From Takakia lepidozioides (lineage: Eukaryota; Plantae; Bryophyta): 64,000 nt of DNA. The DNA lies in the NCBI GenBank assembly GCA_030704615.1, contig CM060733.1:34596001-34660000 (forward strand), written 5' to 3'. How positions within the stretch are numbered: position 1 is the first letter of the stretch; every line of letters starts with the position of its first letter. Position numbers and translations under genes: made by a program. The notes beneath the pieces are model-generated. The model saw only the letters and a program-made list of their open reading frames with translations. It had not been told where the DNA came from and did not search any database. This document shows, piece after piece, positions 3,001 to 48,685 of the stretch.

Positions 3001-3017
3001 GCTTATTTAACTTGACA
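1..3017 (-). mobile_element. 5' part (terminal repeat A', putative self-priming site, long leader) of a Ty3/Gypsy element related to the DNMT-carrying element at 27463-40183; inserted in Copia integrase and running off the window
   Basis: The minus strand starts TGTCAAGTTAAATAAGCACAGTGTGAAACTAACTAG at 3017, homologous to 27463 TGTCAAGTTATTTTACCACTAGTGTGAAACTAGCTAG. A' spans 2667-3017. Positions ~55-420 are the reverse-complement homolog of the pre-gag leader at ~31500-31820. The element interrupts the Copia ORF right after ISRDVVFDEG. Confidence 0.85.
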
Positions 3018-9590: not shown

Positions 9591-9685
9591 TAGCCTTCAT
9601 CCCATGCCACCACCATCTTTTCCCAGATTCCTTCCGTGTTTCCATCTCGGTCCCCCTCTCCAGCCCCTTGGTCACCATGAACGGA

Positions 9686-10108
9686 CGTCCTACACAGGAG
9701 TAGGTTCCCGAAGGTCCTGCACCCTTAACCCACGGCTTCAGCCGCCGCTGCTGCTCTGCTGCTGCAAGGTGTTCAACTGGAGGGCCACGTTTTCTTGACT
9801 CACTTTGGGACACATTCTTTCTCAGGACAGCTCCAAAATTTCTTAGAGAGATCTATAATTAGAACAGGCGCAAACTGTCAAGTTTCTCAACTAAATTTCC
9901 CAAGCGATGTTATAGATCATTGTTATGTTCGCATTCTAAGCAGCCAATAGCACTTAACCGTCTTTGGATAACGATCTAGTCAGTAGTAGGTCTACACATA
10001 TGCTCTTGAACAGCAAGGGACAAGAGCATAACCTGATCTTTAGGGCTACTAACAGTTCTGGAAAGTACTTCATAGATCGAGGGACTACTCGGCCAGATTC
10101 AGAGGCTT
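9686..10108. repeat. Diverged duplicate of LRR-RLK intron plus start of the TM exon (copy of 14817-15296)
   Basis: Collinear similarity from TACACAGGAGTAG.TTCCCGAAGGTCCTGCACCC through CAGATTCAGAGGCTT. Confidence 0.85.
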
Positions 10109-27160: not shown

Positions 27161-27462
27161 TCTCTTGATCCTCTTTCAGAAGCTGTGGTCATGGTTGAGG
27201 TGCCTGATTTTATCAACTGTGCCGCTGCAGCTGCTACCTTTAGTTGACCATCTACCCATGCAGCAGGTTTCTTGTAGCTATTGATCCACATGGAATCATA
27301 GGTAATCTGGAGCTTGAAGTTCGGCCATCTTGGATGAATCTGCACCCAGACTCTATCCCTGCTCCTTCAGCTATCCATGCCGCTACACAAAATCATGCAT
27401 ACATCATTGTCTTGCTGCTAGCACCTAACAATGACAGCCTAGATTTGTTCTAGGAAACACCC

Positions 27463-27789
27463 TGTCAAGTTATTTTACCACTAGTGTGAAACTAGCTAGG
27501 AAATAGCTAGCTTTTACATATTGACATTTGGGATTGGCCCAAGTGTCAATCCAGGGGTCAAGGCAGATTTAGGCCTTGGAGTGGTTATCTTCACGGCAAG
27601 CGCGGGAGGCTCATCTTTCTCGAGTTGAGCCTCACCGCGCCTAGCTATGGCGCCGTAGTGTGGATTCCCCATGGCGTGGGGTGCACTTGGCTTGACTTGT
27701 ATTTGAGTGATGAGGTTATATATGCATGAGTTTATGCTTCAGCTTTGTGAGCTCGCATGAGCTTGTGCTTGTATTCTTCTTCTTTATCA
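27463..27789 (+). repeat. Terminal repeat A1 (327 bp, TG...CA)
   Basis: Matches 39668-39994 with one substitution seen by eye (AGGCCTTGG vs AGGCCCTGG). Confidence 0.95.
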
Positions 27790-27805
27790 CTCGAGAAAGA
27801 TGAGC
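27789..27805 (+). promoter_or_regulatory. Putative self-priming primer-binding site (Tf1-like)
   Basis: ACTCGAGAAAGATGAGC at the end of A1 is the exact reverse complement of 27609-27625 inside A. No TGG-starting tRNA PBS is present. Confidence 0.7.
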
Positions 27806-29339
27806 TCGTATCTATGAGTGCTAGATACGAGTTAGTTGTAGCACTTGTGGTTTTTGCTTGAGAATGAGAGAAACCAAGTTGTTATGCAAGGAGCACCGTG
27901 GAGCTCTTGGTTGTTAGAAGCGGAGGCGATGTGGTTACGAGGTGGTAAACCTTGGCATTCGATCTTCAGCTTCAGAGATGAAAGCACCATACTGTAGGTA
28001 ATTCCAGAGCACCTTGATGGTTTCAGATTGTGTACATGCATGAGCAAGCACGATTGGGAAGAGGACCAGTCAAGAGCAGGTTATAGTGGCTTTGGTGGCA
28101 AAGCTGAGAACTGGACTTGGGAATGCGAGCTGTCATTGTGTGAAGGATTGCAAGACCAAGCGAAAGGGCTGATTTGGCTTGGGGCAAATCAGTGCACTTT
28201 GTGGAGTATGGTGAGATTGGGTTTCAATCTCGAGCTTCAGCATTGAGAGGGCTCTTGTCATGGCAAGAGCAGGGCTGGAACAGGAGCTAAGAGGTGCGGC
28301 AAGGCCATGGAATGTGCACCTAGGGTTTCAGAGCTTGGAAGAAGAGCTCTTGCACCACAAGAGAAGTGTCTTGTGGCTGGAAATGTAAGCCTTAGGGTTT
28401 CAGGAGCTTGGCAAAGGCTGTGGAGTGCTTAGTCTTGTCTTAGAGAGCATCAAGGAGCCAAGGAGCCAAGATAGGGGGCTGATATCTCTTGTGTGAAGAG
28501 GTTGCATGTGTGGAGCATGTATTCAGCTCATTGAAGCTTCCATCTTCAAGCTTGGAGGGCAAGCAAGGAAGAGGGAAGGGCTGACTTCCCTTATGAGGGC
28601 AAGTATGTGGAGCAGCTATCAGCCTGTGAAGGCTTGCACTTTAGGTGTGGGAGTGCAAGAAAGGAAGGAAGGGGCTGGTTTCCCTGTAGGGCATATTAGA
28701 GCATGCTTTCAGCTGCTGAAGCTGATTCTCTTATGGTGAGAGTGGGGCATGTGTGGAGCAAGGTTTGTGGGGTGCAAGAATTAAGCAAAGGAGCTTATTC
28801 TCTTATGGTGAGAGTGGGGCATGTGTGGGATCATGCCCTTCAGCCCATTGAGGCTCTTGTTTTCAAGCCTTAGAGAGCTAGAAGTGAAGGTCTAGGGCTG
28901 GTTTCCACTTGGAGTGAAAGAACAGCACTTGTAGGCCTTGTGAGTTGGTTTTCAAACTTCAAAGCTTGAAAGTGCGCCAACTCTTGAAGCAACAGGTGTA
29001 GAGGGCTGGAATAGGCTCTAGACAGATGTTATGGCCAATGAGGGGAGTGCTTGAATGAGTGCTCACAGGGCTGGGAACCACAGGGCTTTGGTTGTTTGCC
29101 ATGGAGTTTAGTGTCGTGTTTGGGGAGGCTAAGTGAGAAAGAAGGCTTGGGTTTGTGGCAACCACCTCATGGCTTAGGCTACATTGTGGTGGTGTGTGGA
29201 GCCGAAAGAGCAAGGATACCTTGCTGATTTCCTCACATCCACCATAAGCTCGGTGGAAGAAGCTAGAGTCCAAGGACACAAACCCTAGCTTGGCGTGGGC
29301 TAACCCCTTGGAGAAATGCTAAACTGCCAGAGCGGCCAT

Positions 29340-31260
29340 GTGTGGGGCTGTGACAGGCTGTGGCAAATCTTGACGGGCTGTGTCAAGCTGTGACAGGCTG
29401 TGATGGGCTGTGTCAGGCTTGACACAGGCTGTGCCCAGTGCCTTTGGGGCTGTGACGGGCTTGCGGGGCTGTGCCAAGGCTGTGCCCTGAGGCCTGTGGG
29501 GCTGTGACGGGCTGTGACAAGCTGTGCCCATGGCCTGTGGGCTGGTGACGGGCTGTGACAGCTGTGATGGGTGTGCTGTGGATGGGCTGTGACAAAAGCT
29601 GTGTCCCTGTGCCCTGTGGGGCTGTGACGGCTGTGACAGGCTTGCCTGAGGCCTTTGGGGCTGTGACGGGCCCTGTGTGGGTCTGTGACATGCGTGCCCT
29701 GTGCCCTGTGGGGCTTGACGGGCTGTTCGCTGTGGCGAGCTGGGACGGGCTGTCGGGTCTGTGACAGGCTGTGCCCTTGAGGCCTGTTGGGATGTGAAGG
29801 GCTGTGACAGGCTGTGCGAGCTTTGACGTGTTTCCCCTTGCCTTTGGGGCTGTGGCTGTGAAGGGCTGTGACAGGCTGTGGGCCATTGGCCTTGTGGGGC
29901 TGTGGAACGGGCTGTTAAAGGCTGTGATGGCTGTGATGGCTGTGTACAGGCTGTGTCCCTGTGCCCTGTGGGGCTGTGAACGGGTGTGTCAGGCTGTGAC
30001 AGGCTGGCCCAGTGGCCTTTGGGGCTGGACGGGGCTGTTACAGGCCGTGCCTGAGGCCTTTGGGTGTGACGGGCTGTAGGGCTTGTGACGGCTGTGCCCT
30101 GTGCCCTTGGGCGTGACGGGCTTGGTCAGGCTGTGGGAGCTGTGACGGGCTGTGAGGGGCTGTGACAGGCTGTGCCCAGGGCCTGTTGGGGCTGTTGACG
30201 GGCTGTACCGGCTGTGGCAAGCTTTGACCGGTTGGATGGGCTGTGAGGGGCTGTGACAGGGTGTGCCCTGTGCCCTGTGGGGCTGTGACGGGCTGTGTGG
30301 CTGTGACATTGCGTGCCCATGGCCTTTGGGGCTGTGACGGGCTGTGCGGGGCTGTGACAGGCTGTGCCCTGAGGCCTTGGGCTGTGACGGGCTGTGACAG
30401 GCTGTGCCCATGGCCTTTGGGGCTGTGACGGGCTTTGATGGGCTGTGACAGGCCGTGCCTGATGGCCTTTGAGGCTGTGACGGGCTGTGAGGGGCTGTGA
30501 CAGCCTGTGCCCATGGCCTTTGGGGCTGTGACGCTGGAGGTGTGCTGTGACAGGCCGTGCCTGGGGCCTTTGGGGCTGTGAGGGCTGTGAGGGCTGTGAC
30601 AGGCCGTGCCCATGGCCTTTGGGGCTGTGACGGGCTGTGAGGGGCTGTGACAGGCCGTGCCTGAGGCCTTTGGGGCTGTGAGGGGCTGTGAGGGGCTGTG
30701 ACAGGCCGTGCCCTAGGCCCTTTGAGGCGTGACGGGCTGTGATGGGCTGTGGCAGCTGTGACATGCCTGTGATGGCTGTGATGGGCTGTGACAGGCTGTG
30801 CCCTGTGCCCTGTGACAGGCTGTGAGGGGCTGTGACAGGCCGTGCCCATGGCCTTTGGGGCTGTGACGGGCTGTGAGGGGCTGTGACAGGCCGTGCCCAT
30901 GGCCTTTGGGGCTGTGAGGGGCTGTGAGGGGCTGTGACAGGCCGTGCCTGAGGCCTTTGGGGCTGTGACGGGCTGTGAGGGGCTGTGACAGGCCGTGCCC
31001 ATGGCCTTTGGGGCTGTGACGGGCTGTGACGGGCTGTGACAGGCCGTGCCTGAGGCCTTTGAGGCTGTGAGGGCTGTGAGGGGCTGTGACAGGCCGTGCC
31101 TGAGGCCTTTGAGGCTGTGACAGGCTGTGAGGGGCTGTGCACAGGCTGTGCCCAGTGGCCTGTGGGACTGTGACGGCTGTGACCAGTGAGCTGTGTGGGC
31201 CTGTGCTGGTCTGTGGTGGCCCGTGTTGACCTGTGGACGGCCTGTGCTGACTCGTGGAGG
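29340..31260. repeat. Minisatellite in the retroelement leader: 10-bp GGCTGTGACR subunits forming a 51-bp higher-order unit
   Basis: Unit GGCCTTTGGGGCTGTGACGGGCTGTGAGGGGCTGTGACAGGCCGTGCCCAT recurs at 30850, 30901, 30952 and onward. Most homogeneous at 30300-31130. Confidence 0.95.
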
Positions 31261-31919
31261 CACTGGTGGACTGCCTAAGGACTGGCATGTGGTCTGGAAG
31301 GCCGAATTTTGAAGCTCGTGGAGGGCGGTTTGAGGAGTATCTTCATGATATTCCCATGGTCATGCAAGTGAGGATAGAGAGGAGAGGCAGAGTGTTGGGA
31401 TGAGAGCATGCTGGGGTTAGGCATTGCTTTAGCTTCTCTTCCTCGTAGTTTCCACCCTCTCATTAGGCCAAGACCTTTCCGTAGGTGGAGGCAAGAGTCA
31501 GTCCGGGTTTGGGCTGGGGTGTCCTTGCAGGAGCAACACCGTGGAGTTGTTTTTGGTGTGGGGAGTTGTCGTTCTGATTTCTTGTGTTTGGATCCCCTCC
31601 ATACCTGCATGCTTGACTGTGCGCCATGCTAGTTTTGTGTGGGCGCTTGTTTTTATAGGTGATTGGTCCGGATTTGATCACCGGCCAGTCCTAGAGCATG
31701 CTGTCGATGGTGAGGCTGGGGTGATGACCAGCCAGACCATCATTGTTTCTCCTGTGGTGAGGTTGGAGGTGATGACCAGCCAACCATAGGAGTGCTTGCG
31801 GTGGATGCAGGTACAGGTGTAGGCTATGTTAGGAACTTAGTATTCCAAACCATAAGCCGCAACAGGTTCTCTACCCGGTTACCTTGTGGAGAGGGGGTTA
31901 GGGACATGTTCATGACCGG

Positions 31920-33190
31920 TTGAGTGTCAACACGGAGGTGCCACTAGTTGCTGGGGACAGTGCCGGTTCGAGCACTAGCGATACTAGTGGGTACACGAGA
32001 CGAGGTGTGCGGTTTAGGCCACCTTCACCTCCTGTGTCTTCCACGGAAGGTTCTGATTCGGATTGTGAATCAGGAGGGCTCATACCGGCGGTGCAAGTTG
32101 TTTCTTTGCCATTGTTGTGGGACACAATGGAGGAGATGTATGGAGCTACCAAGGGGCCACGAAGGTACTCTGGGGCGGTGGGCACCATTGAGTTGGATGA
32201 TTTTATCCAAGAGTTTGATAGTTGGTGTGATTTGCAGCAAATGCGCAATCCACAACTATTTACGCCGTTCATGGCATGGAAAGGGCTGTTTCAGCACCTT
32301 GAGGGGCCGCCTATGGATGATTACCATGAGTTCAGGCGGGGGCATGAGGTTGAGATCGAGGAGTGGAGGATGTACTGGTCACCCGACTATGTCTCCATCA
32401 CTAGGGGCACTAGAGCCACGAGGGCAGTGGCTACACCTGCCGCTGCACCGGCAGCTTCAGCAAGCAGCAGTGGGACTGGTGGTACAGTAGCTACGACGTC
32501 CACCCAAGCCACTACCGCACCAGCACTAGCACCCGTGCCTGCCTTCAACCCTGTTGTGGAGTTCTTCGAAGAGTTGAGAGGGAACTACCAAGGGGTGAGG
32601 ACAGAGAAGTTGCGGAGCTTGCAAGAGTTCCAACGGAAGCCGACCGAGAGCTTGAGGGAGGCTTTCACTCGCATGAGGCGCTTGATAAATGTAACCCAAG
32701 GGGTTACGGAAGCTCAGGCAGTCCAATTCTGGTATGGGATATTGGACAAGGAGCTGAGGAGAAGGGTGCGGGATGCAACTCTCCTACAAGCGGCCCAACC
32801 CACCTTAGCAAATGTGTTTTTGCTGGCAGAGCGGATAGAGCTCAACATGGTGGAGGAACGAGTGGTCATGGTGGGATTTGCTAAGGAGACACCACGGGGT
32901 AGTGGTGCTCCTAGCCAACCACTACCTCAACGTGCTCAAGGCAACAAGGGGGCTCAGGTGAAGCTCAGGGAAGGGCAGAGAGGACCTCAGATGCAGGGGT
33001 CTCTCCCTTCATTTGCTGGCCAACAACGGGCGGATGTGGTGTGCTGGACATGTGGAGGACCCCATGTCAAGAAGGATTGTCCAGAGGGAGGCAAAGGGCC
33101 GGCACATGCACAGCCTGCACAGTTACAGTGTGGGCATTGTGGCAACACGGGCATGGAGAGGCTCAGTGTTATGGTTTGCATCCTGAGTTG
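31920..33190 (+). CDS. Retrotransposon Gag with two zinc knuckles
   Basis: LDDFIQEFDSWC, FQRKPTESLREAFTRMRRL, CWTCGGPHVKKDC, and CGHCGNT/GHGEAQC completed across a 1-nt frameshift near 33150. Confidence 0.9.
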
Positions 33191-34790
33191 CGCCCAGGCC
33201 AGTTCCAAGGGAACAATGGTGGCCGGGGGCGAGGTGGAGCAGCCCAGAGGGGACGAGGTGGCCAGCCACGAGGTGCAGGCCAAGGGCAAGCTCAACGTGG
33301 CCAAGGACGCGGAGGTCAGGGTGTTGACCAAGGCATGGCCAACCGGCTTCAGCAGCTAGAGCAGAGGCTCGCTGCCATGGCTACAGCTCAGGTGGTACCG
33401 GCTCTAAGGCCGGATGGTCCACCTCCTGCTCCTGAGGGAGGAGATATGGGAGGCATGGGATTCATGTGTGGAGCAGCACTACCACTAGTGCAGGTGGAGT
33501 CTGCTGCAGCCGTGACTCGAGGAGCAGCACGAGTTCCTGAGCCACGAGGTGCAGAGGTGGAGTTGGATCCACAGCGTGGGGAGGCAAGCCGTCAGGCTAG
33601 GCTTCCTCAGTCATTCACATTGGCGGAGACAGTGTCGACGCCATCCATGGCACCTAGTTCTCGCCCGACTGTTACCGAGGCGGAGGTCACTATGCCATTG
33701 GGGAGAGCTACACGGGTAGCACCACTACCTAGTGTTGCCAAGGCTACGGCAGCTAGTGTGCTGCTAGGAGCGGCCACATCTGTGTGCCAGGCTCCATTGT
33801 TCTCGGCTACCATGATTGCGACGCCGGGGGTAAGACCAGCTGAGGTGTTCAGGCTGGCAGCTACACTCTGTGAGAGTGGGGAGGTTACTTCATCTTCTGC
33901 GGAGATAGTGGGAGGTGTAGTGCCGGAGGGATCCTCGGATTTGAGGGTCAAGACTGCCACGGCGGCGCCATGGCAAGCTGCAGCTGCCAGGTTGATGGAG
34001 CTGCCAGCTAGGCCAGCCATTGAGCGCGCCATGGTGACACCTGGAGTTGTCATGTTAGACAACCAGGATGGCATTTTCTGTTTGAGTGGACCGGCAGGCA
34101 AGAGGTACCGGCCACTGCGAGTCTTGTTGGACTCGGGAGCTCAGCCACTGATGCTGGGCAGAGCTGCTATTGCAGGCTTGGGCCTCACGGAGGCGGATAT
34201 GGAGCCTTGTCCTTTCCAGATACAGACGTCTCTGGGAGGATCGGAGCAGGCTCGGGGCATGACACGGCATGAGTTGGCTATCAGACTACGGCCGGATCAC
34301 CCTACAGATGGCTCAGTGATGCGAGCCAAGGCCATTGTGACAGACGCAGTCTCATACGATGTCCTGGTTGGTGGGGCAGTGTTGTACCCCATGGGCTTCA
34401 CCCTGGATTTTTGGGAGGAGTCAGCTTCCTATAGGCCTGCATGGCAGTCAGGGGAGGGCCGGCGTGTGCAGCTCCCTGTGACGTTCATAGGAGGAGTTGC
34501 GGTTGCCCAGCGAGGCAAGATGCCGACACTAGCAGCATTCACAGCGGCAGTGAGTTGGCCTAGAGAGTTGCTTGAGGGCAATGCTCATTCAGAGGATGTA
34601 CCACCTCCGGGAGAGCAGGATGACATGTATGGTATGGCGGAGTTGCCTACCATGGTTGCTCAGACTCCATTGTGGGGCACGAGCAAGGATTTGCAGCGGG
34701 ATGCTGATCGACGGGTGCAACAAGCCTGGGTGGAGGCTTTTGTACCGTCAGGAGAGGAGGAGAGTGTGGGATTGCACCAGGACCACCTCA
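33041..34790 (+). CDS. Gag-Pol linker and aspartic protease
   Basis: RVLLDSGAQPLML (Asp codon at 34130) and YDVLVGGAVLY, preceded by an RGG-rich segment. Confidence 0.85.
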
Positions 34791-34791
34791 A

Positions 34792-36090
34792 TTGTCTCCA
34801 TTGGACACCACACCTATTGTGTGGCAGTCTCCGGATGAAGGCATTTGTCTTCTGGACTTGTTTGGCGGGATCAGCACCGGATTGGCTGCTGTGTTACAGG
34901 CAGGTGTACGAGTTCGGCGTTACCTGTATGTGGAGAGGGATGAGACTGCACGACGCGTTTCACTTCGCCATGTTGCTCAGTTGGTGCAGCGGTACCCTGA
35001 GTTGTTGTCGGTGTCTGCAATTCGTGGATATCAGCAGGCCTTGCCAGCAGACATTTCGTTGCTGGGGGCGCAGGATTTGGAGCGGGTTGGCTCCATTGAT
35101 CTGGTAGTGGCAGGTTGGCCCTGCCAAGGGCATTCATCAGCCGGGCATGGCAATGGATTGCGAGACTCGAGGTCGGGTCTGTTTTGGGAGATGGTGCGGG
35201 TTTTGCGCCACTTGCAGCTTCATCAAGCTGTATCTCCAGCATACATCTTGGAGAATGTGCCACTGATGGGCGATTCTCGGGCCAGGGTGATGGCCAGTGT
35301 GCATCAAGTCCGGTCGTGGCTTGGGTCAGCAGTGTTGCTAGATGCAGCTACAGTGGGGTCACGGGCTCATCGTCCACGGCTATGGTGGACTAACATGATG
35401 CCACCCGCACTGCTCAAGCGTGCATTTGATGGGGTGCAGCGGCCAGCACATCTCACAGTGGATAACATTCTGGACACAGGGAGGCAGTCTCAACGTGTGA
35501 GACACGATGACCGTTCGCCTTTGGCAGTGGTCAACAAGGTGGGTCAACCACGAGCAGCATTACCTACACTGCTCAGCTTCCCAGGATCGCATGCTTTCCG
35601 GGATAGTGGACCTGGCCTCCTGTGGGATGCTCAGTTGCAGCAGTTAGTGGAGCCTAATGCTGACGAGCGTGAGCGGGCAATGGGTTTTACCACTGGTACC
35701 ACGGCGGTGTCGTCTCTTTCTGAGGCATCACGTCGTCAAGTGTTGGGGCAAGCAATGGATCTCAATTGCTTGACCTGGATTATCAGCTTGGCTCTAGCTG
35801 AGCAACGCAGAGTGCGGAATACACTTCCCTCAATGGTCTCTCTGCCTACCGAGACGGTACAGGCAGTGAGTGGGGGCGAGCATATGAGGACCACGGGGTG
35901 CATGCATCCATGGCACACGTGGGAGGTGCTCGAGGTTCAGAGGGAGTTGGCAGCCAAGGCGGCTGTGATGGATGAGGTTGGGGATTCTTCTCGAGTTGAG
36001 GAGGTCCTCAAGGATGAGATGATGGGGCAGGATGATGCCTTGTCATTGACTGAGCAGGTAGGGAGTACTGCTCAAGAGGTTGCAGCATAG
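34792..36090 (+). CDS. C5 cytosine DNA methyltransferase domain (DNMT3-like, non-permuted) embedded in pol
   Basis: Motif I LDLFGGI, II YVERD, III ADI, IV GWPCQG (Cys codon 35122), VI ENV, VIII AHRPRLWWTN, IX ERERAMGF, X RRQVLGQAMD, all in one uninterrupted frame. Confidence 0.95.
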   Translation: MSPLDTTPIVWQSPDEGICLLDLFGGISTGLAAVLQAGVRVRRYLYVERDETARRVSLRHVAQLVQRYPELLSVSAIRGYQQALPADISLLGAQDLERVGSIDLVVAGWPCQGHSSAGHGNGLRDSRSGLFWEMVRVLRHLQLHQAVSPAYILENVPLMGDSRARVMASVHQVRSWLGSAVLLDAATVGSRAHRPRLWWTNMMPPALLKRAFDGVQRPAHLTVDNILDTGRQSQRVRHDDRSPLAVVNKVGQPRAALPTLLSFPGSHAFRDSGPGLLWDAQLQQLVEPNADERERAMGFTTGTTAVSSLSEASRRQVLGQAMDLNCLTWIISLALAEQRRVRNTLPSMVSLPTETVQAVSGGEHMRTTGCMHPWHTWEVLEVQRELAAKAAVMDEVGDSSRVEEVLKDEMMGQDDALSLTEQVGSTAQEVAA

Positions 36091-37575
36091 CAACCACGGG
36101 ACGCGTCCTCTACCTCTAAGCCCACTGGACTTAAGGTTGCAGTTACGGAGGACAATTGGGAGCCTGACATTGGACCCATTGTCACCGGAGGAGAGAGACG
36201 ACGTATACGGCGGTTCCTGAGGGCTTACAGGAATTGCTTTGCCTTCAGTTTGAAGGACTTGGGAGCACTGAAGGGTCAAGAGATCCGTATTGAGTTGGCC
36301 ACTGACACGCCAATCTTTCGGAGACCCTATAGATACAGTGACATGGAGAGGTCTTTGATTCAGATGAGGACTCAAGATCTCTGGGAGGCAGGTTTGGTGG
36401 AGCTCTCTGGTGGAGAGTATGCTTCAGCCACAGTGATGCCAGCCAAGAAGGATGTCTATGGCAATTGGACGGAGAGACGTATGTGCGGTGATTACCGGCC
36501 TGTAAATCGTCAGACCAAGTCCGATAAGTATGCCATGCCAACACCAGAGGAGATCTTTGATGCCATCGGGCATGCTAAGGCCTTTAGCACTTTGGATTTA
36601 CGATCCGGATATCACCAGTTGCCAATCAAGGAGGCGGACAAGCAGAAGACGGCATTCTGGGGGATCAATGAGCACGGCAAGGATTGCCTATATCAGTGGC
36701 GGTTCTTACCATTTGGGCTTAAGAATGCTCCTGCAGAGTTTCAGAGAGTCATGGATAGGATTCTAGCAGGGGTGGACTTTGCTCGGTGCTACATAGATGA
36801 CATCATCATCTTTAGTGTTACGATGGAGGAGCATGAGAGACACCTTCAGGTGGTATTGGAGCGCTTGAGAGCGCACGGATTGAAGTTGCATCCGGGGAAG
36901 TGCAAGTTTTTCCACAACCAGATTGAGTATCTGGGTCACATGATATATCCTGGAGGATTGGGGGTACAGCAGACTAAGGTAGAGGCCATTGCACAAATTC
37001 CACGCCCCACGGATGTGAGCCGAGTTCGAGCTTTCATGGGGTTGGCAAACTATTATAGACGGTTTGTCAAGGGATTTAGTACCATTGCAAAGGCTCTAAC
37101 CAAGCTGACCAAGGTGGACCAGGAGTGGCAGTGGGAAGATGAGCAGGAACGAGCTTTTCAAGAGCTCAAGGCGAGGTTGACCTCGGCGCCTATCTTGAGA
37201 CGACCTATCAGGGGGCGTCCCTTTCAGCTGCATACGGATTGGAGCATGCTGGGGCTTGGAGCGGTGCTCACACAGGTGGATGATGAGGGAAGAGAGTTCG
37301 TAGTGGCTTACGCTAGCCGCTCGAACAACGCTGCAGAGGCTAAGTACAGCTCATATGAGGGAGAGTGCTTAGCTGCAGTGTGGGCCGTGGCACACTTCAG
37401 GTGCTATCTATACGGCAATCTTTTCACCCTTGTCACGGATCACCAGCCACTCAAGTGGTTGATGGAGTCAGACAAGCTTACGGGAAGCTTGCACGGTGGG
37501 CACTTATACTCCAGGAGTATGACTTTCAGGTTGTGCATCGACCGGGTTTGGTCAATCGGGATGCGGATGGATTGA
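36091..37575 (+). CDS. Reverse transcriptase and RNase H (Ty3/Gypsy), same frame as the DNMT after a single TAG
   Basis: RMCGDYRPVN, LDLRSGYHQ, PFGLKNAPAEFQ, YIDD (36790), FQLHTDWS, VAYASR, YSSYEGECLA, VTDHQPL. Confidence 0.96.
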   Translation, partial: QPRDASSTSKPTGLKVAVTEDNWEPDIGPIVTGGERRRIRRFLRAYRNCFAFSLKDLGALKGQEIRIELATDTPIFRRPYRYSDMERSLIQMRTQDLWEAGLVELSGGEYASATVMPAKKDVYGNWTERRMCGDYRPVNRQTKSDKYAMPTPEEIFDAIGHAKAFSTLDLRSGYHQLPIKEADKQKTAFWGINEHGKDCLYQWRFLPFGLKNAPAEFQRVMDRILAGVDFARCYIDDIIIFSVTMEEHERHLQVVLERLRAHGLKLHPGKCKFFHNQIEYLGHMIYPGGLGVQQTKVEAIAQIPRPTDVSRVRAFMGLANYYRRFVKGFSTIAKALTKLTKVDQEWQWEDEQERAFQELKARLTSAPILRRPIRGRPFQLHTDWSMLGLGAVLTQVDDEGREFVVAYASRSNNAAEAKYSSYEGECLAAVWAVAHFRCYLYGNLFTLVTDHQPLKWLMESDKLTGSLHGGHLYSRSMTFRLCIDRVWSIGMRMD

Positions 37576-39221
37576 GTCGCAATCCATGCATGAGCCAGCA
37601 GGATGACACTGGAGCTCGGTGGCATGGTGAGACGGACGAGGAGATGGTGCCGGGATGGCACGCATCTGCATTTTTGTGTATCTTGGCATCGGGAGGTCAG
37701 ATTGGACCTACAACAGGGATGACTGTAGACGGAGTGTCTGAGGACCCTGAGGCTAGTGATGAGCTAGGTGGTGCCAGAGATATACATGAGGATTCGGCTG
37801 TGTTGGACTACCTCCGCACGGGAGACACGGCAGCCATTGTGACTGCCAGGGAGAGGGATCGGATCCTGCAACGAGCCAAGAGGTTCAAGTGGGAGGGGAT
37901 ACACCTACTTCGAGTGTGGGAGGATGGTCGGGTGAGGATTGTGCCTCACCCCACACAGCGTGCACGGTTAGTGCGGCATGCCCATGAGGAGTTGGGGCAT
38001 TTTGGAGTGCGACGCACTCACAGTTTACTGCAGGGGCAGTATTGGTGGCGTGGTATGCATACAGAGGTGCAACAGTTTGTGGCTAGGTGCATGGTGTGTG
38101 ACAGGGTGCGTGCTTCATTCAACGCCCCTACACCACAGTTGCATCCTTTACCTATCATGGGATTGGGCTACAGGTGGAGTCTTGACTTCGCAGGACCGTT
38201 GCCACTGACTATGCGCCACCACAGATATGTGTTGGTGATGGTGGAGCACTTCTCCAAGTGGATTGAGTTGGTTCCATTGCCTGACAAGGCTAGTGAGGGG
38301 GCTGCGTATGCATTCTTGGATCGTGTGCTTAGCCGATTTGGTGCTCCAGCTGAGGTACTCACGGACCAAGGGAGAGAGTTCTTGGGGGAGTTTCAGGCTT
38401 TGTGTGATAAAGCCTTGATAGACCACCGCACCACTTCTCGGGATCATCCTGAGGCCGATGGCTTAGCAGAGAGAGTTGTTCAGACGGTGAAGAGGGGTTT
38501 GCGCAAGTATGGCTTGCAGAAGGGACACCTAGGAGATTGGGATCTTCAGGTTCCTTGGTTAGCCATGGGCTACAGGTTCAGCAAACAAGCATCACTTGCC
38601 TCCTTCTCACCATTTCCTTCTCTTTGGCCGAGAGCCGGATTTGCCTGCAGCCATTCGTAAGGACACTGCTCAAGTCCTTAACCTTGACGATCCGGACGTG
38701 TGGGTACGTGCATGTGATCAGCGTGCAGAGTTGTTCAAGAAAGTCATGCCCATGGCTTTTGAGAACCTTGCCATTGCACAGCACCGTGATACGTTGAGGT
38801 ATGCCACTATACGTGGTGGAGGATATCGTCCTGGGGTTCGGAGGTTTAGCCCTGGTGACTATGTTTATTTGCAGCAGACTGCTCCTACGACTCTGGATGT
38901 TACTGCAGGGCGTGTTATTCTGAGGGTTCGAGAGGTGTTGCCCTCAGGGGTCCTGATCTTAGAGGGTCGGGATGGCATGACTTGGAAAGACCATGTGCGT
39001 AATTGTGCGCCATGTCACCTTCCCAATGTCGATGGCAGAGTTGACCCAAACTTGGCAGTGGTACCTGCAGGTTTGAGGTGCATGCTCTGTGGGTCTGCCA
39101 AAGGGGCAGCCACCATGCTGGTGTTGATCGGTGCTCAAGGGGTTGGCATATGGGATGCTTGACACCACCTCTTGAGAAGGTGCCTGACGGAGATTGGTTG
39201 TGTCCACACTGCTTGGGATAG
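37480..39221 (+). CDS. Integrase (HHCC, DDE core, C-terminal domain) ending in a PHD finger; 1-nt frameshifts near 37480, 38610 and 39125
   Basis: HEELGHFG...CMVC, WSLDFAGP, LTDQGREF, GLAERVVQT. The C-terminus is CMLC...[C]DRCSRGWHMGCLTPPLEKVPDGDWLCPHC (C4HC3) at 39079-39212, stop at 39219. Confidence 0.92.
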
Positions 39222-39480
39222 TGGCAGTGGACATGACTGGAGGCAGCTAACAAGCCATGGGAGGCCAAGCTCATAGGAGTCAATACATAAGATCCAAGCT
39301 CAAGTTCACAGGTTGCAAGACGGCGACTAACGATGGGGCAACTCTTGCACCCGGCCTCTTGATCTATCGAGTTTGAGTGTAGTAGGGATAGTGGTGGAGG
39401 ACTTAGTGAGGCTATGGTCACTATCACATCTTGTGGCTACCTGGACTTAGAGGGACCTAAGCACCAGCTAGGGGGGCGAT

Positions 39481-40183
39481 TGTGTGGACTAGTGACTGCC
39501 ATAGTGGGCAGCGTAGTGGCAGCTAGTGACTGACTAGTGTAGCCTAGTGGTTGACTAGTGGCTGGACTAGTGGTAGACTAGTGGTATACTAGTGTGTGGT
39601 GTGCACATGTGTTGTGTGGTTTTGGACAGCGATGTAGTTGTGTAGCGATATGTATGCGCACGACAGCTGTCAAGTTATTTTACCACTAGTGTGAAACTAG
39701 CTAGGAAATAGCTAGCTTTTACATATTGACATTTGGGATTGGCCCAAGTGTCAATCCAGGGGTCAAGGCAGATTTAGGCCCTGGAGTGGTTATCTTCACG
39801 GCAAGCGCGGGAGGCTCATCTTTCTCGAGTTGAGCCTCACCGCGCCTAGCTATGGCGCCGTAGTGTGGATTCCCCATGGCGTGGGGTGCACTTGGCTTGA
39901 CTTGTATTTGAGTGATGAGGTTATATATGCATGAGTTTATGCTTCAGCTTTGTGAGCTCGCATGAGCTTGTGCTTGTATTCTTCTTCTTTATCATTGTGT
40001 GGACTAGTGACTGCCATAGTGGGCAGCGTAGTGGCAGCCTAGTGACTGACTAGTTGTAGCCTAGTGGTTGGACTAGTGGCTGGACTAGTGGTAGACTAGT
40101 GGTATACTAGTGTGTGGTGTGCACATGTGTTGTGTGGTTTTGGACAGCGATGTAGTTGTGTAGCGATATGTATGCGCACGACA
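39481..40183 (+). repeat. 3' repeat block: B1 (39481-39665), GC, A2 (39668-39994), T, B2 (39996-40183), preceded by a short PPT
   Basis: PPT-like AGGGGGGCGA at 39470-79. B1 and B2 differ only by three 1-nt indels. B is TG...CA and rich in ACTAGT motifs. Confidence 0.95.
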
Positions 40184-41449
40184 ACCCAACTCAACTTATC
40201 ACGATGGTCAATTGCATCTGCTACTCTCTGTAATCCAACAGACAGTCACCTTTTTGCCTCGATTGTCCCACCATTGACTAGGGTCAGAAAAATATTCATT
40301 CCACAGCTTCTCCTCGTCTCAACTGTTACCTGTTTCTGGATACTTCCCTGTTGTCACATTGGGCAGTACCATGTCAAAGTCACTCCAAACTATCAAAGTT
40401 TCACTCAACCAGCTAACTTGCAGAATTCAACATGAAAATTTAGGGCCAATTCTGATAAGAGGAAAAACAGGGTGAAAATGTGTTGAAGAAGGTGCCTTCA
40501 TGAGCAGTGCCTAATTTTATCAATTGTGCCGCTGCTGCTGCGGCTTCCAGTTGACCATCTACCCATGCAAGTTTCTTGCAGCTATCGATCCACAGGGAAT
40601 TATAGGTAATCGTGAGCTTGAAGTCCCGCCCTCTTGGATGAATCTGGACCGGCTAGACTCTACCCTTGCTCCCTCAGCTATCCAAGCTCTGCACAAATCA
40701 TGCATACATCTTTCCCTTGCTACTAGCGGCTGACAATGACAGCCTACAATTGTTCCAGCAAACACCCAACCCTACTTATCACCCATGCAGAATTCAACAT
40801 GCATCTCAGGGCCAAGTCTGATCATGAGAGGGCAAAACAGGCTAAAACGTGCCCTCACCACATTGTCCTTCACCCATGGAGAATTTGACCGACCATCAAC
40901 CCAAAATGACCTCTTGTGTGTGCTGTTTGTCTGTAGTCAGATAATGTCGGATTGGTCTGAGAACCACCACGGTGCAGTTGAGTAGGCAGAGATTGAAACA
41001 CGGCCTGCTAAGACCTGCAAGCTGACTCTCCCAAGAACCTTGTAAACATTAGGAAGAATACCAAATCATGGTACTCACAGGAGTCAAGAGCCCACCTTTG
41101 CAGGATGGACGAACTTCTTAACATCGTACATTAAGAAAAGCCACACCTGGTGATTGCGGTTGTCCCACCATCATGAAGGATCGGTATAAAACTCATGCAA
41201 CCTCACATGACGAACGAGCTAACTTCTACATGAAAATTTAGGGACTACTCTGGTAACAGGGAAAAACAGGGTGAAATGTATTGAAGAAGGTACCTTCATG
41301 CCGCACGCTCAGCCATCTTCACATTGCCATGGATTCTGCAGGCACCAAGCAAGGCCTTCATTTTGCAAACATGTCGACCTCTTTCCCCTTTTCCAGAGCT
41401 GGCAGGCAGTGTTCAGAATGACATTATGTACAATTCCAGCTTTGAACAA

Positions 41450-41975: not shown

Positions 41976-43789
41976 AGGAAATGAATCAGCGGGCTGCTAA
42001 GACCAAGCTGATTCTCCCAAGAACCTTGTAAACATCAGGAAGAAGACCGTACTAACAGAAGCCAAAAGCCCACATTTGCAGGATGGACAAACTTCTTCAC
42101 ATCCTACATTAAGGAAAAGCCACACCTTATTGCGATTGTCCCACCATCGGCAAGGATCGGTAAAAAACTCATGCAAGCTCTGAAATAGGTCGAAGAAGAA
42201 GGTGCCCTCACCACATTGTCCTCGACCTTGTGTCATGACCCATGGAGGATTTGACTCCCCATGAACCCAAACGGACCTCTTGTGTGTTGCTTGTGTCTGT
42301 AGTCTGGTAATGGCGGATTGGTCCATGAGAACCACCACGGTGCAGCTGAGCGAGCAGAGATTGAAACACGACCTTGAAACACAACCTGCTAAGACCAGCC
42401 TGACTTTCCCAAAAACCTTGTAAACATCAGGAAGAATATGAAATCATGGTACGTCTAATAGGAGCCAAGAACCCGCATTTGCAGGATGGACAGACTTCTT
42501 CACATCGTACATTGAGAAAAAGCCACACCTTGTGATCGCGATTGTCCCACCATCGTGCACGCCTTCATGCCCCGATTATAGGGCTTGAGTCCCTGTCTGC
42601 CCCCTATCCACCAGCTCTACTCGTCATCGTACATTGAGAAAAGCCACACCTTGCGATCGCGGTTGTCCCACCATCGTGCACACCTTCATGCCCCGATTCT
42701 AGGTCTTGAGTCCTTGTCTGCCCCTATCCCACCAGCTCCGCTCGTCGTCTCTCATGATCAGACTTGACATTATAAGAAAACAAATCGATACAAAGAAAAC
42801 AAACAAATGCCACAGTGGCAGGGAAAACAAAAAAAACGCTAAGTCCCCTCTAGTCATGACTGGATGGATGAATGTAGCGATACATGGATGGATTTTGGGT
42901 TTTCCATCAACACACAAACCACTAAGTTTTTCAAGTATCACCACAGAAGTAATACCAATCACTGGTGTGTATGTAATCACTCATGCGTAACCACTGACCG
43001 AGTGTTCCAGTTACTAAATGGTCTATAACCACTCACTCTACACCACTCTCAAAGTGGTACCAATCAATGGGGGTCTTTAACCACTCCAGATCTACGTATA
43101 TTGTCCCCATCCACGTGGAATAATATATTTTGAAATGATAAAAATCTAAAAAAAAAAGAATTATTACACGTGGAGTAGAAAGTGGTTTCAACCACTTCCC
43201 ATCACTGAGGTGTCTTTAACCACTCATAATTTATCACTGTACCCGTCCATGTCGGATATTATCATTATTAATATAAATATTTGACCAAATGTTGAATAAT
43301 AAATATAAAATTAAATATTACACATGGATTACTTAGTGGTTGAAACCACTTCCAACCACTCCATATGATGCCACCGTGGCATTTCATCGGAATTAACCAC
43401 TGGCCAGTGGTTACCATTACTTGGAGTGATTTATAGAGTGGTAAGGGGGCCAGTGGTTATTCCGCGTTTTTCTTCTAGTTTTGCCTCACAGGGGATTGAG
43501 TGGTAGCACCCCAAAAAAAATTCCGAATGAGAGCTATGATCTCATTCACCATCGTGGTACTTGGATCCCAGACCGCTACAGAAAACCAACAAGAGGCTAG
43601 AAGCACTTGGTTTGCCACCAGTGCTCCACCAACGATTGATAGCATAGATGAGCTCTAGTGGGCGAGAGATCTTTTCAACCTAAAGACTACACTCTTCATT
43701 CTGCTCCCCTGGGACAGATTTATGCCAATCTTGTGACCTAGCAGCGTATGAGATTCTCCCTCACGAAGCCATTGAAGACCAATGTCTTG

Positions 43790-46700
43790 TGTCGAACGGC
43801 TTTTACTCATCCATCCCTTCGCTATCCGAGGTGGAAACTCCAAGATAGAAGAGTTGGATATCTCTAAGCACTCAGCCCGCTCAGTACTATCAGTCATGAC
43901 CTGCAGCTAGTGAATCATGGTTGTGTTTCCCATTTGTATTCCTTCTTGCCTTCATGTTATCAATTTACCTTATCTGATACTGAAGCATTAGATTGCTTCA
44001 GTATCTACTTAGTTCCAGTTAATCATACATTCAAGTCACATCTTCACTCATGTCTCTCTACACAGTGTGATGGTATCGAATAAGTATCAGATTATGATTT
44101 ATCAGGTATCAGGCCAATGCCATGGTGACTCTAATCCGCCCTACAGTATCACTACAGCTCTGCATGTAATAAGCATCTACTGTTCATCTTTCCTCCTTCT
44201 CTGTGCTCTCGTTCTTGCTCTCCGCCTGATCTCCTCTTCCCATGATCCAGAAGCGCTCCCCGTGAAGTGATCCTCTTTCCGTTGCCGCTCTCCTTATCTG
44301 CCCGCAAGCTGTTCTAACCACCTAACTAACTAACTGTCATCCTGAAGTAACACGTTTCCCTCTGCAGATGTCGTTCCCTCACAGTCGTTCCCTGTCAATG
44401 ATAACTGTTCCCCATGTACTGTGACAGGCTGTGTCAAGCTGTGCCGAACTGTGACTGGCTGTGTAAGGCTGTGTCGGGCTGTGTCGGGTTGTGACTGGCT
44501 GTGTAAGGGTATCGGGCTGTGACTGGCTGTGCGAAGCTGTGTCGGGCTGTGTCGGGCTGTATACCCCCCTTAAAGCCTACTGTTGCCACCCCTAAGGCTC
44601 CTGTTGGTCTCAGTCTGCGCAAAAATTAAGGGTACCCCACAGAACCCGTAAAAGCGTCTAAGTCCCAAGTAGCCCTCTAACATTTATCCCTCCCTCTTTC
44701 AAAAAACCGTGTCCTCACAGTTTACTGTTTGGGATTAGCAAACCTTTGTGAGCGAGCACCCTTCTGACGGTGAGAGTCTCATAAAGGACTCCGTGTGCGA
44801 GCTCAAGTCCTGTCACTGGTTGACAGAGATGATTGAGCACTACCTGGAAATGTCTGACCCTCCTTTGGCTGATAACGAGGTAACCTCTCAGGCATAGGAG
44901 ATCCCCGTCGTTTCTTCTCTGCCATCTGAAGTGCATAGTCCCTCTGCCATGTCAAAAGAGTCCGCTGAAGAAAGAGTTGTATCAGAATCCTCGTCTCCCC
45001 TTAGGTGTTTTAATGGCCGAACTTTAAGTGGAATCCTGTGTGGCATACAATGTGGTCCGACCATATCTGGAAGTTTAAATTGTACAACTTGTTGTAAGCG
45101 CTGGCAAGCAAAATTAGTGAACGTCCTCAACCTTATCTGTATAGGTAAGAGGTGTGCCAATGACTTTGAACAGTGTAAGTATTTCCATGCCTCATGTCCC
45201 TTAAAGAAAATATCCTCAGGGCCGAATTTCTGTGTTGTTAAATTGTTCCAAGCCGAATGAAACCATGAACGAAGTTGGGAATCCTTCTGCATCATAACTT
45301 TTGCATCATATAGGTACATATGAGGCGGCTGAAGGTAAGACCCAATGATCCCCACTGGAATAACTCAGAAATCGGGATTGCATCCTCTGCTACTCAATGT
45401 GATAACGTGCCAGAAAACAAGCAGCATAGTATAATCCACAGCCCATGACAATACTTGATACCTCATTGGTCTTGGTATAAATGTACCCATGTACAATTTG
45501 GAAGGCAATTAATTCCTTCAACATGGACCTGCTTCAGACCAGTACCTCGCAAAGTGATGATCCTCAATGGGTCGATTGTTCGGAAGAACCTTAGTCCTAG
45601 TTGCCACTGGCAGCCAAATGCGCATGATCTGATCACGAAGTATGGTTTCGAAAATGCAATGGCAGTGACGACTCCTGCTGACCCTAATACTCAAATGAGT
45701 TTCTACTCTCTTTCGGGTGACTCAAAGAAAGAAGAAAAGGAAAACATCATGGATTACCAATTTCCATATCAGAAATGGTTGGGAGCTTGATGTTTGCAAG
45801 CATCGGGAGTCGTCCTGACATCTCATATGCAGTAAGTACAGTGGCAAAATACGCATCAAGACACATACCTGTGCACTGCAACGCTGTGAAACGGATCATG
45901 AAATACTTGAAGGGAACATCTCATTTTGTTCTGACCTACAATGGGAAGCAAGACACAAATCTGCTCATAGGATTTTGCGACACAGATTATGCTGGTGACA
46001 TAGATGAAAATCCAGATCGGATGTGTCATTATGTTGAACCAAGGAGCAATTGTTTGGAGCAGTCGGAAACAAGCGTGTACTGCTGGATCGACAACTGAAT
46101 CGGAGTACGTTGCGGCTCACATGGCTACGAGGGAGATTATTTGGTTACGGAGACTCATGGACTCCATTAGACATTCACAGAAGACACCCACCCCACTTCA
46201 CAGCGATAACCAGAGTTGCATCAGACTGGTTCACAATCCAGAGTACCATCGTCGAACAAAGCACATAGACGTTTAGTACCATGTCATTTGCGAGAACCAG
46301 ACGAAGGGAGAAATTGATATTCAGTATGTTCACACGAACGATCAGATTGCCGATATTTTCACGAAGGCTCTTGGTCAAACAAGTTCTTTCGTTTTCGCTC
46401 CATGCTTGGGTTGCATTCCCCAGCAAGTAATCTCTGTGCAAACGATCTTTGAAGCATGCATACAATGTCGGACTGAGTGGGAGTGTTGAAATCGAAGATC
46501 CAGTCCGTCATTGACATCTGGACCATGTTGGTCGAATAGTCATAGTCAGCAACTAGGTGGCAGTCCACCGAGCAGTCACAATCACAGATGCCAGTCAGTC
46601 ACATTTTGAATCTCTAGCCAGTTGGATCTCCCGCACTTAGTAGTACTTGTATTTTTTGGTGGCAGACGATACTTAGTTAGTTTTTATGTATGTTCTTGGG

Positions 46701-48685
46701 ATGCCCTGGTTGTAGTCTCAACCTCAGCTGTTGGGTCTACTTCTTCATACTCTTCCTCTTCCAATTTCTTCTCTTTTTCATCATCCAAGTTCTGCCCTTG
46801 GGTTTCTTCTTCACTCATGTAACTCAACTGCAATGGTGTTGGAGAGTCTGAACTCTCCGTTGGCTCTGCCACATCCTCTCCTCCTTCTTCATCTTCCGTC
46901 TCAGAAACTGGAGTTCCTGCTTTTGGTGTTCCATGCCAACTCTTATCAAAGATTTCTGTCAAATCTTTTATCCAGGGATGTACCTCAGATCTTTCACCTC
47001 GTGGTTGATCTTCTTCCAGTACCAATTCCCTTAATCTTTCTTGCAAAGAAAAAGAAGGAGTGGCATCCAACTCTAGTTCTTCCGGTATGGATGATGTACT
47101 CTCTGATCTTAATGGTGTGAGAGGTCCAGATGATTCCCCTATGTCTATTCCTCTCTCCCAAAGATATGGATAATTAGCTTTCAGATAACTTTCTCTTTTT
47201 GCTGAATATCTCTGGAGTCTAGCTTCTCTTTCATCACTCATGTCCCATGTCTTTCATTTCTTTAATGTGGCAATAACCAAAACTCTCTTCTGTAGTATCT
47301 CTCGTATATGCCTGGGTTTCTTTCAAGCTTCAATGCACCCTTGGCTATACTAGAAGTCTCCGTTACCATATAACCATATGGCAAACAAGTCTAAAAAGCT
47401 GTTCTTGGTGTGAGTTTGATCCACAGAATATCCTTTGGAATCCAATTCTTTACCAGTACAAGCTCTTCATGCATATGAGTATAAATATTCACCTTCCTTT
47501 CCTCCCAGCCTTCAAACTCTACTCGCTTAATGGATAGCAATGCTATCACATAAACCAGTGTTGGTAACCAACGTGCTCTTCCTCTACAGGCCACCTGATA
47601 AATCTTTATCACTCCTTTCTCCAAACCCCACTCAGGGTCAGCATCATGCACTCTCTTAAGAATTTTTTCTTTACAACCATCTGGCAATTCCAAGAACCTC
47701 TGAAAGAATTGTTTGGACAATCTTTCCTTCTCAGTTTCACAGGGAATTTGATTCACATCAAATTCTTTAATTCTCCAACCACCATGATCCCACCAGATGT
47801 CTGTCACATCTGGTTGTTTATGACCCAGGTCCCCAGTATGGTCGCCAAATGTCGAACGGCTTTTACTCACCCATCCCTTCGCTATCCGAGGTGGAAACTC
47901 CAAGATAGAAGAGTTGGATATCTCTAAGCACTCAGCCCGCTCAGTACTATCAGTCATGACCTGCAGCTAGTGAATCATGGTTGTGCTTCCCATTTGTATT
48001 CCTTCTTGCCTTCATGTTATCAATTTACCTTATCTGATACTGAAGCATCAGATTGCTTCAGTATCTACTTAGTTCTAGTTAATCATGCATTCATTTCACA
48101 GCTTCACTCATGTCTCTCTACACAGTGTGATTGTATCGAATAAGTATCAGATTATGATATATCAGGTATCAGGCCAATGCCATGGTGACTCTAATCCGCC
48201 CTACAATATCACTACAGCTCTGCATGTAATAAGCATCTATTGTTCATATTTCCTCCTTCTCTGTGCTCTTGTTCTTGCTCTCCGCCTGATCTCCTTTTCC
48301 CATGACCTTGAAGCGCTCCCCGTGAAGTGATCCTCTTTCCGTTATCGCTCTCCTTATCTGCCCGCAAGCTGTTCTAACCACCTAACTAACTAACTGTCAT
48401 CCCTGAAGTAACACGTTCCCTCTACAGATGTCATTCCCTCACAGTCATTCCCTGTCAATGATAACTGTTCCCCATGTACTATGACAGGCTGTGTCAAGCT
48501 GTGCCGAGCTGTGATTGGCTGTGTAAGGGCTGTGACTGGCTGTGTCGGGCTGTGTCGGGCTGTATACCCCCTCTAAAGCCTGCTGCTGCCACCCTTAAGG
48601 CTCCTGTTGGTCTCAGTCTGCGCAAAAATTAAGGGTACCCCACAGAACCCGTAAAAGCGTCCAAGTCCCAAGCAGCCCTCTAACA
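43790..48685 (-). mobile_element. Non-autonomous or internally deleted LTR retrotransposon inserted in the LINE
   Basis: LTRs 47850-48685 (5') and 43790-44682 (3'), TG...CA on minus. 5-bp TSD TCTTG. PBS TGGCGACCATACTGGGG and PPT GAAAGAGGGAGGGA. No pol of its own recognisable. Confidence 0.92.
45620..46695 (+). mobile_element. Copia RT-end/RNase H, PPT and partial 3' LTR fragment (same family as 3018-5705)
   Basis: SRPDISYAVS, GFCDTDYAGD, STTESEYVA, SDNQSCI, RTKHIDV. PPT GAGTGGGAG. 46484-46695 matches the reverse complement of 5490-5705 with about five differences. Confidence 0.92.

Follow-up and report, generated by a model that had tools for sequence, protein, structure and literature searches.

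How a retrotransposon that lacks a complete pair of long terminal repeats (LTRs) starts its DNA synthesis, and from which ends it re-enters the genome, is the question raised by the 64-kb window (the whole stretch of DNA analysed here). The element lies at 27463-40183, flanked by two copies of ACCC on the + strand (27459-27462 and 40184-40187) that form a 4-bp target duplication, and a paralogous empty site at about 40700-40850 carries a single ACCC. A sequence-only reading had proposed that the element primes minus-strand synthesis with its own RNA. Such self-priming is established for Tf1, where it involves 11 bases and an RNase H cut (accessible parts of PMC7175516 and PMC4600332), and is predicted, in the available text of PMC6317226, for 12% of plant LTR elements and for Tcn1 and TAR. 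For SM-Tcn1, the accessible part of the description reports that no primer site was found (PMC2864245).

Structure of the element

Features of the element are given on the + strand of the window. The repeats are arranged in the order A1 (327 nt), internal region, B1, the dinucleotide GC, A2 and B2. A1 (27463-27789) opens with TGTC at the left end, contains promoter-like, R-like and U5-like sequence, and differs from A2 (39668-39994) by one mismatch; the starts at 27463 and 39668 correct the repeat boundaries drawn earlier. B1 (39479-39665), the U3-like part, ends in GACA and is 98.4% identical to B2 (39994-40183), with three 1-nt gaps between them. B2 closes the right end, again with GACA, and its joint with A2 reads TTATC-A-TTGTG, one A being common to both repeats. 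Since A1 and A2 differ at one base and B1 and B2 by three 1-nt gaps, the insertion is young. B1 is adjoined by a polypurine tract, AGGGGGGCG (39470-39478), and AGGGGGGCG-A is conserved in relatives. At the B1/A2 junction stands the palindrome GACA-GC-TGTC (39662-39671), a predicted integrase site whose two halves equal the two element ends.

The long 5' leader contains a GGCTGTGAC-type tandem array (29300-31360), and the coding region is broken over several frames. It comprises a gag-like frame (31902-33359; Retrotrans_gag E 0.0023, below the curated cut-off), a protease-like frame whose translation has an LLDSGA motif and no Pfam match (32915-35107), a Dnmt3-like C5 cytosine methyltransferase domain (34708-36090; PF00145 E 6e-13, best PDB match DNMT3A E 8e-11) in whose predicted sequence the motifs PCQ and ENV are both present, a reverse transcriptase with RNase H (36091-37575; best PDB match Ty3 RT E 3e-69), and a DDE integrase (H2C2, rve) with a C-terminal PHD finger, spread over several frames (37359-39221; PF00628 E 6e-6).

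Outside the element, short arrays resembling the leader array occur at 44399-44560 and 48459-48570 within an unrelated 900-nt repeat pair (43790-44683 and 47850-48686, 90% identical). The window also holds a second, distant Gypsy RT-integrase remnant (61592-63613, +), a cytochrome P450 fragment (9193-9798), and inverted repeats at 43180-43351 and 55922-56099 with perfect 16-17 nt arms about 150 nt apart, possibly the ends of small DNA elements.

Relationship to known elements

The element is of the KnitGypsy-Dnmt3 type; it is Tf1-like at the priming step, is not assigned to the Tf1/sushi clade and is not a DIRS element. KnitGypsy-Dnmt3 from Klebsormidium nitens combines Gypsy domains with a Dnmt3-like domain in Pol and, according to the legend of Fig. 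4c, has DIRS-like repeats (de Mendoza 2018, PMC5890265). As far as the accessible text goes, the window element has the same domain order (gag, protease-like, DNMT, RT, RH, IN, PHD) and shares the DIRS-like arrangement, here A1-internal-B1-A2-B2; it differs in that the window comes from a probable land plant (nearest named relatives in Marchantia, Calypogeia and Sphagnum). Named relatives altogether come from Calypogeia, Sphagnum, Marchantia, Riccia, Closterium and Klebsormidium. In its accessible text, PMC5890265 contains no primer, polypurine tract or replication model, and the text of three supplements gives 0 matches for primer, PBS and polypurine; its figures may show more. Later papers mention streptophyte elements in passing only, in the parts available (10.64898/2026.05.21.726589, PMC12344493).

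A quick reverse-transcriptase tree of 55 rows, built without Tf1 or Tcn1 rows, placed the window element among rows from Marchantia and metagenome loci, separate from the Gypsy rows of seed plants and animals. Its 39-row green-lineage clade (SH-aLRT 99) also includes Marchantia, Closterium and a single K. nitens row, the latter on a long branch, 46% identical and without DNMT annotation.

According to the accessible parts of the sources, Tf1/Tf2, the Tf1/sushi group, Tcn1 and TAR resemble the window element in having a binding site directly after U5 that can pair with a part of the LTR close to the RNA start. The Tf1/sushi group (Tcn1) carries a chromodomain after the integrase, whereas the window element has a PHD finger (PF00628) and no chromodomain match, its relatives likewise having PF00628. 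Furthermore, that group has two complete flanking LTRs, in contrast to the order A...B-A-B with no complete LTR pair seen here, and the window element adds a Dnmt3-like domain and has element ends that differ from the primer-defined ends.

DIRS-order elements (Ngaro, PAT, SymbioDIRS-Dnmt3) share the order A-coding-B-A-B and a B/A junction matching the joined element ends, but the window element has a DDE integrase (rve, H2C2), a binding site, a polypurine tract and a 4-bp target duplication. No tyrosine recombinase was found in the 18 frames scanned (17 of the 58 listed and one short frame). DIRS and Ngaro elements are not known to carry a target-site duplication, whereas one of 4 bp is present here. 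Two other candidates were set aside: Odin elements as a split-repeat parallel, the word 'split' being absent from PMC9040795, and Troyka, which is unrelated as far as the available part of PMC12440569 goes.

Primer segment and primer-binding site

The proposal of self-priming started from a 17-nt complementarity, which was confirmed in full: 27609-27625 (GCTCATCTTTCTCGAGT), inside A1, is the exact reverse complement of 27789-27805 (17/17). The latter, the putative primer-binding site (PBS), begins at the last base of A1, and the right edge of repeat A coincides with the last paired base to within one base. When the 42 nt following A were compared with dinucleotide-shuffled A, the longest match in 2000 shuffles was at most 9 nt, against 17 observed. 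The window also contains two non-microsatellite perfect inverted repeats of 16-17 nt at spacings within 60-450 nt (43180/43335 and 55922/56084), so pairing length is not diagnostic by itself; the case rests on position, the binding site standing exactly where A ends, rather than on length. For comparison, self-priming is assigned in the accessible text of PMC6317226 when at least 10 nt directly 3' of the LTR are complementary to an LTR-internal segment; here 17 nt are, at an offset of -1.

The same pairing had been described for a sister element, and it holds there as well: on the - strand, the primer segment at 2851-2865 pairs with the primer-binding site at 2653-2667 over 15/15 positions, with the T/A pair of the window element replaced by C/G, the compensatory change that had been pointed out. 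The corresponding shuffle test gave matches of at most 11 nt in 2000 shuffles, against 15 observed. Repeat A1 of the sister (2667-3017, -) starts with TGTC at 3017 and is inserted in a Copia integrase frame; the Copia gag-pol remnant that it interrupts spans 2957-4838 (-). At 1502-1760 (-), the 5' leader of the sister has captured part of a trichome-birefringence-like host gene, recognised by PMR5N and PC-Esterase matches. Similarity to the main element resumes at about 55-388 versus 31486-31819 (83%), and the sister runs off the window start.

Covariation of the pairing among relatives

Relatives were collected by scanning metagenome contigs with a DNMT alignment of 40 sequences, the best 80 of 171 being taken, and one further locus, L081, was added from genome contigs. 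L081 comes from a bin titled as a cyanobacterium, where it is probably a eukaryotic contaminant; its contig closes on itself (127-nt overlap) with the order PPT-B-palindrome-A-PBS, which would fit either a circle or a collapsed repeat. Viral contigs yielded no relative with either the RT query or the DNMT alignment. Together, the best 80 of 171 and L081 fall into one large family, which holds most loci, and a smaller one (L059, L064, L081); L064 is without A1 and was left out of the A/primer comparison. In addition, L046:16580-17246 is a second, nested relative with other repeat sequences and the same PPT-B1-GACA-GT-TGTC-A2-B2 end, likely a fourth family.

In every family, a segment of A is complementary to the bases right after A, at a distance of 146-184 nt. 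The pairing is ATCTTTCTCGAGT with ACTCGAGAAAGAT in the window element, AGTTCTTTGAGT with ACTCAAAGAACT in the large family, ATTCTTGTCAAGT with ACTTGACAAGAAT in L059 and ATCTTTGTCAAGT with ACTTGACAAAGAT in L081. There were 26 non-redundant candidates, loci present in two assemblies being counted once, and four were left out because the primer is deleted or missing (L041, L051, L054, L072). Covariation was evident across 22 aligned copies from three families, in which 7 of the 10 pairs changed on both sides. Paired cells numbered 200/220 (22 copies x 10 columns), against 31-47% in slid registers, and the covariation score was reached by 0 of 500 shuffles, a test that is inflated by kinship of the rows. 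Only 10 columns could be aligned free of gaps, and the 22 rows correspond to about four independent lineages, 18 of the 22 belonging to one family of decayed copies; the pairing is broken in several such copies (L010, L017, L019, L044). If plus-strand synthesis copied the primer, matching changes on both sides could also arise as a mechanical by-product.

Of 23 aligned A1 copies, 5 (L051:1905-1945, L041, L017, L054 and L010) show deletions within the primer-bearing hairpin; two of these remove it cleanly, and in L051 it is retained in the A2 copy. Hairpin-induced deletion, a slip in reverse transcription and assembly are all possible causes.

Family comparison also bears on the idea that a host tRNA fragment or another small RNA serves as primer, with the LTR-internal complement acting solely as a structural helix. 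Plant Copia lineages do include cases of half-tRNA priming (accessible text of PMC6317226), yet none of the six sites checked, that of the window element included, has TGG in its first 8 nt, as a binding site of the tRNA-3'-end type would. The binding site differs among families at most positions and stays complementary to the LTR segment, a change that one conserved tRNA could not follow, and priming of this kind is therefore considered extremely unlikely. No tRNA gene was found within the window, and an Rfam search returned two matches only, both at chance level (E 5-6).

RNA start and predicted folds

A TATA-like motif, TTATCTT (27585-27591), lies 40 nt upstream of the last primer base; it is not canonical. 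TATA or TTATC occurs 40-44 nt before the last primer base in 19/22 copies, TTATC, the form in the window pair, having been joined to the search pattern by eye. The usual distance from TATA to the RNA start is about 30 nt, which together with this spacing points to a primer of 11-14 nt. The pairing of L081 has its limit exactly at TATA+29, and binding sites of the large family vary past position 12, where they do not pair. The core that pairs in every family measures 11-13 nt, so the comparison suggests an RNA start near 27613 (range 27609-27615) rather than at 27609 as first proposed, and a predicted self-primer of 12-13 nt (27613-27625) within the maximal 17-nt pairing; a 17-nt primer was rejected, as only 11-13 positions pair across families. 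The equivalent start base in the window is A27613, preceded by C.

Taken together, the covariation in three families, the six binding sites without TGG, the TATA-like spacing and the edge of A at the last paired base support self-priming of the Tf1 type. On these sequence comparisons, it is very likely that the element primes minus-strand DNA with the 5' end of its own RNA, a judgment that concerns self-priming alone.

A competing hairpin enclosing the primer (27600-27640) had also been claimed, and it is indeed the predicted fold for RNA starting at 27599; with the start set at 27609, it yields to the primer:PBS duplex. Analogous hairpins are predicted in both other families, so that the enclosing hairpin is present in all three with differing sequence. 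RNA with the predicted start would lack the 5' arm, which is encoded farther upstream, so the hairpin would be expected in A2 or in read-through RNA; in A2 it may hide the second copy of the primer, a role with only partial support. Folds begun at a 13-nt primer gave a mean probability of 0.67-0.99 for the primer:PBS duplex in 8 of 9 sequences and 0 in L042. Upstream bases, when added, abolished the duplex in four of the nine, lowered it in two and left it unchanged in three, and the hairpin as a universal switch is accordingly only partly supported.

The region folds far better than shuffled sequence (z -7.1 and -7.8; sister z -4.3). A second helix, 27623-27631 (AGTTGAGCC) with 27689-27697 (GGCTTGACT), is predicted in the window, the sister, L059 and L070, and a third, U5-IR-like helix (27705-27715 with 27782-27792) is predicted to close on the A/PBS boundary; both are presumably comparable to the U5-IR structure of Tf1. 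The 10-bp stem reported after the binding site is present (27805-27814/27822-27831) and partly kept in the sister, but it is absent from the two other families and was dropped as a general part of the signal.

Split repeats and the internal palindrome

Under standard LTR reverse transcription, the LTR is delimited by the binding site and the polypurine tract. With the former directly next to A and the latter next to B, reverse transcription likely produces an LTR of the form B+A, and the primer signal, by fixing the LTR in this way, would explain the split repeats. The A/PBS, PPT/B and A2/B2 boundaries each share a single A, both in the window and in L008. The palindrome GACA-NN-TGTC stands at the B/A junction in the window and in seven related loci from at least three families, with the spacer GC five times, GT twice and AT once. 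A reading in which the LTR is cut internally at this site was set out before the relatives were collected. Its expectations that repeat-less A-internal-B copies would occur and that A2/B2 joints would look end-joined were borne out; a third, that A-B-A-internal-B copies would occur as well, failed.

Proposed replication and integration route

The arrangement of signals makes it reasonably probable that this is a self-primed, Dnmt3-carrying Ty3/gypsy element whose integrase cuts the palindrome inside the LTR rather than the cDNA ends. The RNA would start near 27613, fold back and be cut, leaving a primer that ends at 27625. Strong-stop DNA would then jump to A2, the plus strand would start at the polypurine tract, and the resulting cDNA would carry B+A as its LTR. 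A staggered integrase cut at GACA-NN-TGTC would generate ends resembling those of processed retroviral DNA, with CA-3' termini and 5' overhangs of 2 nt. Opened in this way, a single-LTR circle would insert as A-internal-B, which has no repeats and would be a dead copy. If the ends of a two-LTR molecule were joined, whether before strand transfer or after it, the insertion would be A-internal-B-A-B, able to copy again; this form would correspond to an end-joined B-A...B-A cDNA opened at the palindrome upstream of the binding site.

The model needs an asymmetry between the two palindromes, because a freely cut two-LTR circle should also give A-B-A-internal-B, a form that was not found: B stands upstream of A1 in 0 of 22 related copies and in neither window copy. 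Only the palindrome upstream of the binding site would be used, perhaps because it becomes double-stranded first, on plus-strand strong stop, which is speculation.

Parallels exist for single parts of this route. In the IS3 and IS30 families, circle junctions are cut by a DDE enzyme. In retroviruses, the LTR-LTR junction arises by joining of the cDNA ends, and its use for integration is minor or disputed; the palindrome found here, in contrast, is part of the LTR itself, and all insertions seen terminate at it. A DDE enzyme that cuts a palindromic CA-spacer-TG circle junction into integration-ready ends is predicted here as in foamy virus and IS3/IS30. Cleavage of the palindromic LTR-LTR junction by foamy-virus integrase is described in the accessible part of PMC1180852.

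Copy forms and alternative explanations

Two kinds of insertion were found among relatives. The best 80 of 171 and L081 include 22 non-redundant loci with B, of which 13 are A-internal-B, 5 have A2 and 4 are unclassifiable, the presence of A2 in L058 and L067 having been judged by eye. The repeat-less form thus accounts for 13/18 classifiable loci, its flank beginning directly after PPT-B, and the order A-internal-B-A-B recurs in L008 and L051. At the nine related loci with both ends, the 4-bp target duplication is exact in six, has one mismatch in two and is absent in one. Assembly collapse is a less likely source of A-internal-B, since B1 and B2 differ by about 9% in two complete old copies and since two of the repeat-less loci (L042/L080, L048/L049) recur unchanged in a second assembly.

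The repeat-less copies might instead have arisen after integration: self-priming and the internal cut would be as proposed, only A-internal-B-A-B would be inserted, and later recombination between B1 and B2 would produce A-internal-B in the way solo LTRs form. In its favour, only about 340-500 nt separate the direct repeats B1 and B2, the relatives are old copies (81-96% identity to the B of L008, used as query), and the target duplication would survive such recombination. Yet B measures only 115 nt in the main related family and repeat-less copies are nevertheless the majority of classifiable loci, B identity does not separate the two forms, and the repeat-less L015 is 98.3% identical to another copy over 2.9 kb. 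None of these three points is decisive, and later recombination is regarded as unlikely.

The A2/B2 joints bear on a further alternative, copying of the DIRS/Ngaro kind. Here the transcript would run into B2, the B1-A2 junction would serve to rebuild both ends, and the A2/B2 joint would be copied from RNA into linear or circular A-internal-B-A-B, with the primer pairing starting only part of the process or forming a packaging structure. The repeat order is that of DIRS-type split repeats (accessible text of PMC5890265), two of four A2/B2 joints (window and L008) are exact to the base, and the absence of A-B-A-internal-B would be accounted for. However, synthesis from a primer at the binding site runs leftwards into A, so that B2 cannot be copied from it, and the joint is made of exactly the PBS-defined and PPT-defined edges. 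The other two joints carry extra bases, namely an 18-nt filler in L051 and 14 nt beginning with a binding-site copy in L067/L069. The lack of a tyrosine recombinase in the scanned frames and the presence of target duplications also stand against it, and this explanation is considered very unlikely.

As for the joint in L067/L069, a binding-site copy is retained at the 3' end of roughly half of Tf1 cDNA and also in HIV circles (accessible part of PMC11042837); the same joint can also be read as a deletion from the binding site to the polypurine tract. The copy concerned (L067:12587-13483, L069:4923-5819) is rearranged, with a truncated RNase H, an inverted A piece, foreign sequence, a partial A2, a binding-site copy and B2, and it retains an exact CACA duplication.

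Internal cutting of circular or end-joined cDNA is the preferred reading. More tentatively, with doubt slightly outweighing confidence, a green-plant Ty3/gypsy lineage could have uncoupled its reverse-transcription ends from its integration ends and could routinely integrate circular cDNA at an LTR-internal, IS30-like CA-NN-TG junction. One-LTR circles would then produce the repeat-less dead copies, which are the majority, and end-joined two-LTR molecules the DIRS-like masters.

Implications for the lineage

Self-priming (Tf1; predicted for Tcn1 and TAR) and the DIRS-like repeats of Gypsy-Dnmt3 elements were already known, whereas no published description of the primer and internal-integration route was found. 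In the full-text literature covered, with most subscription journals and Repbase reports outside it, no paper was found on these elements' primer, internal site or repeat-less form. For the DIRS-like repeats of Gypsy-Dnmt3 elements, so far unexplained, the analysis provides a model of replication, and it adds a self-priming plant lineage apart from Tcn1 and TAR. Furthermore, LTR finders would miss these elements in bryophyte and algal genomes because most copies are without paired LTRs.

Retrovirologists have long asked whether DDE integrases can use circular cDNA as a true precursor. The whole lineage may use the circle integration route, via a 10-bp site that is testable on oligonucleotides. 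A possible design reason is that an unremoved self-primer or ragged cDNA ends would be harmless if integration uses an internal site. If the route is true, this would be a retroelement whose normal integration precursor is a circle.
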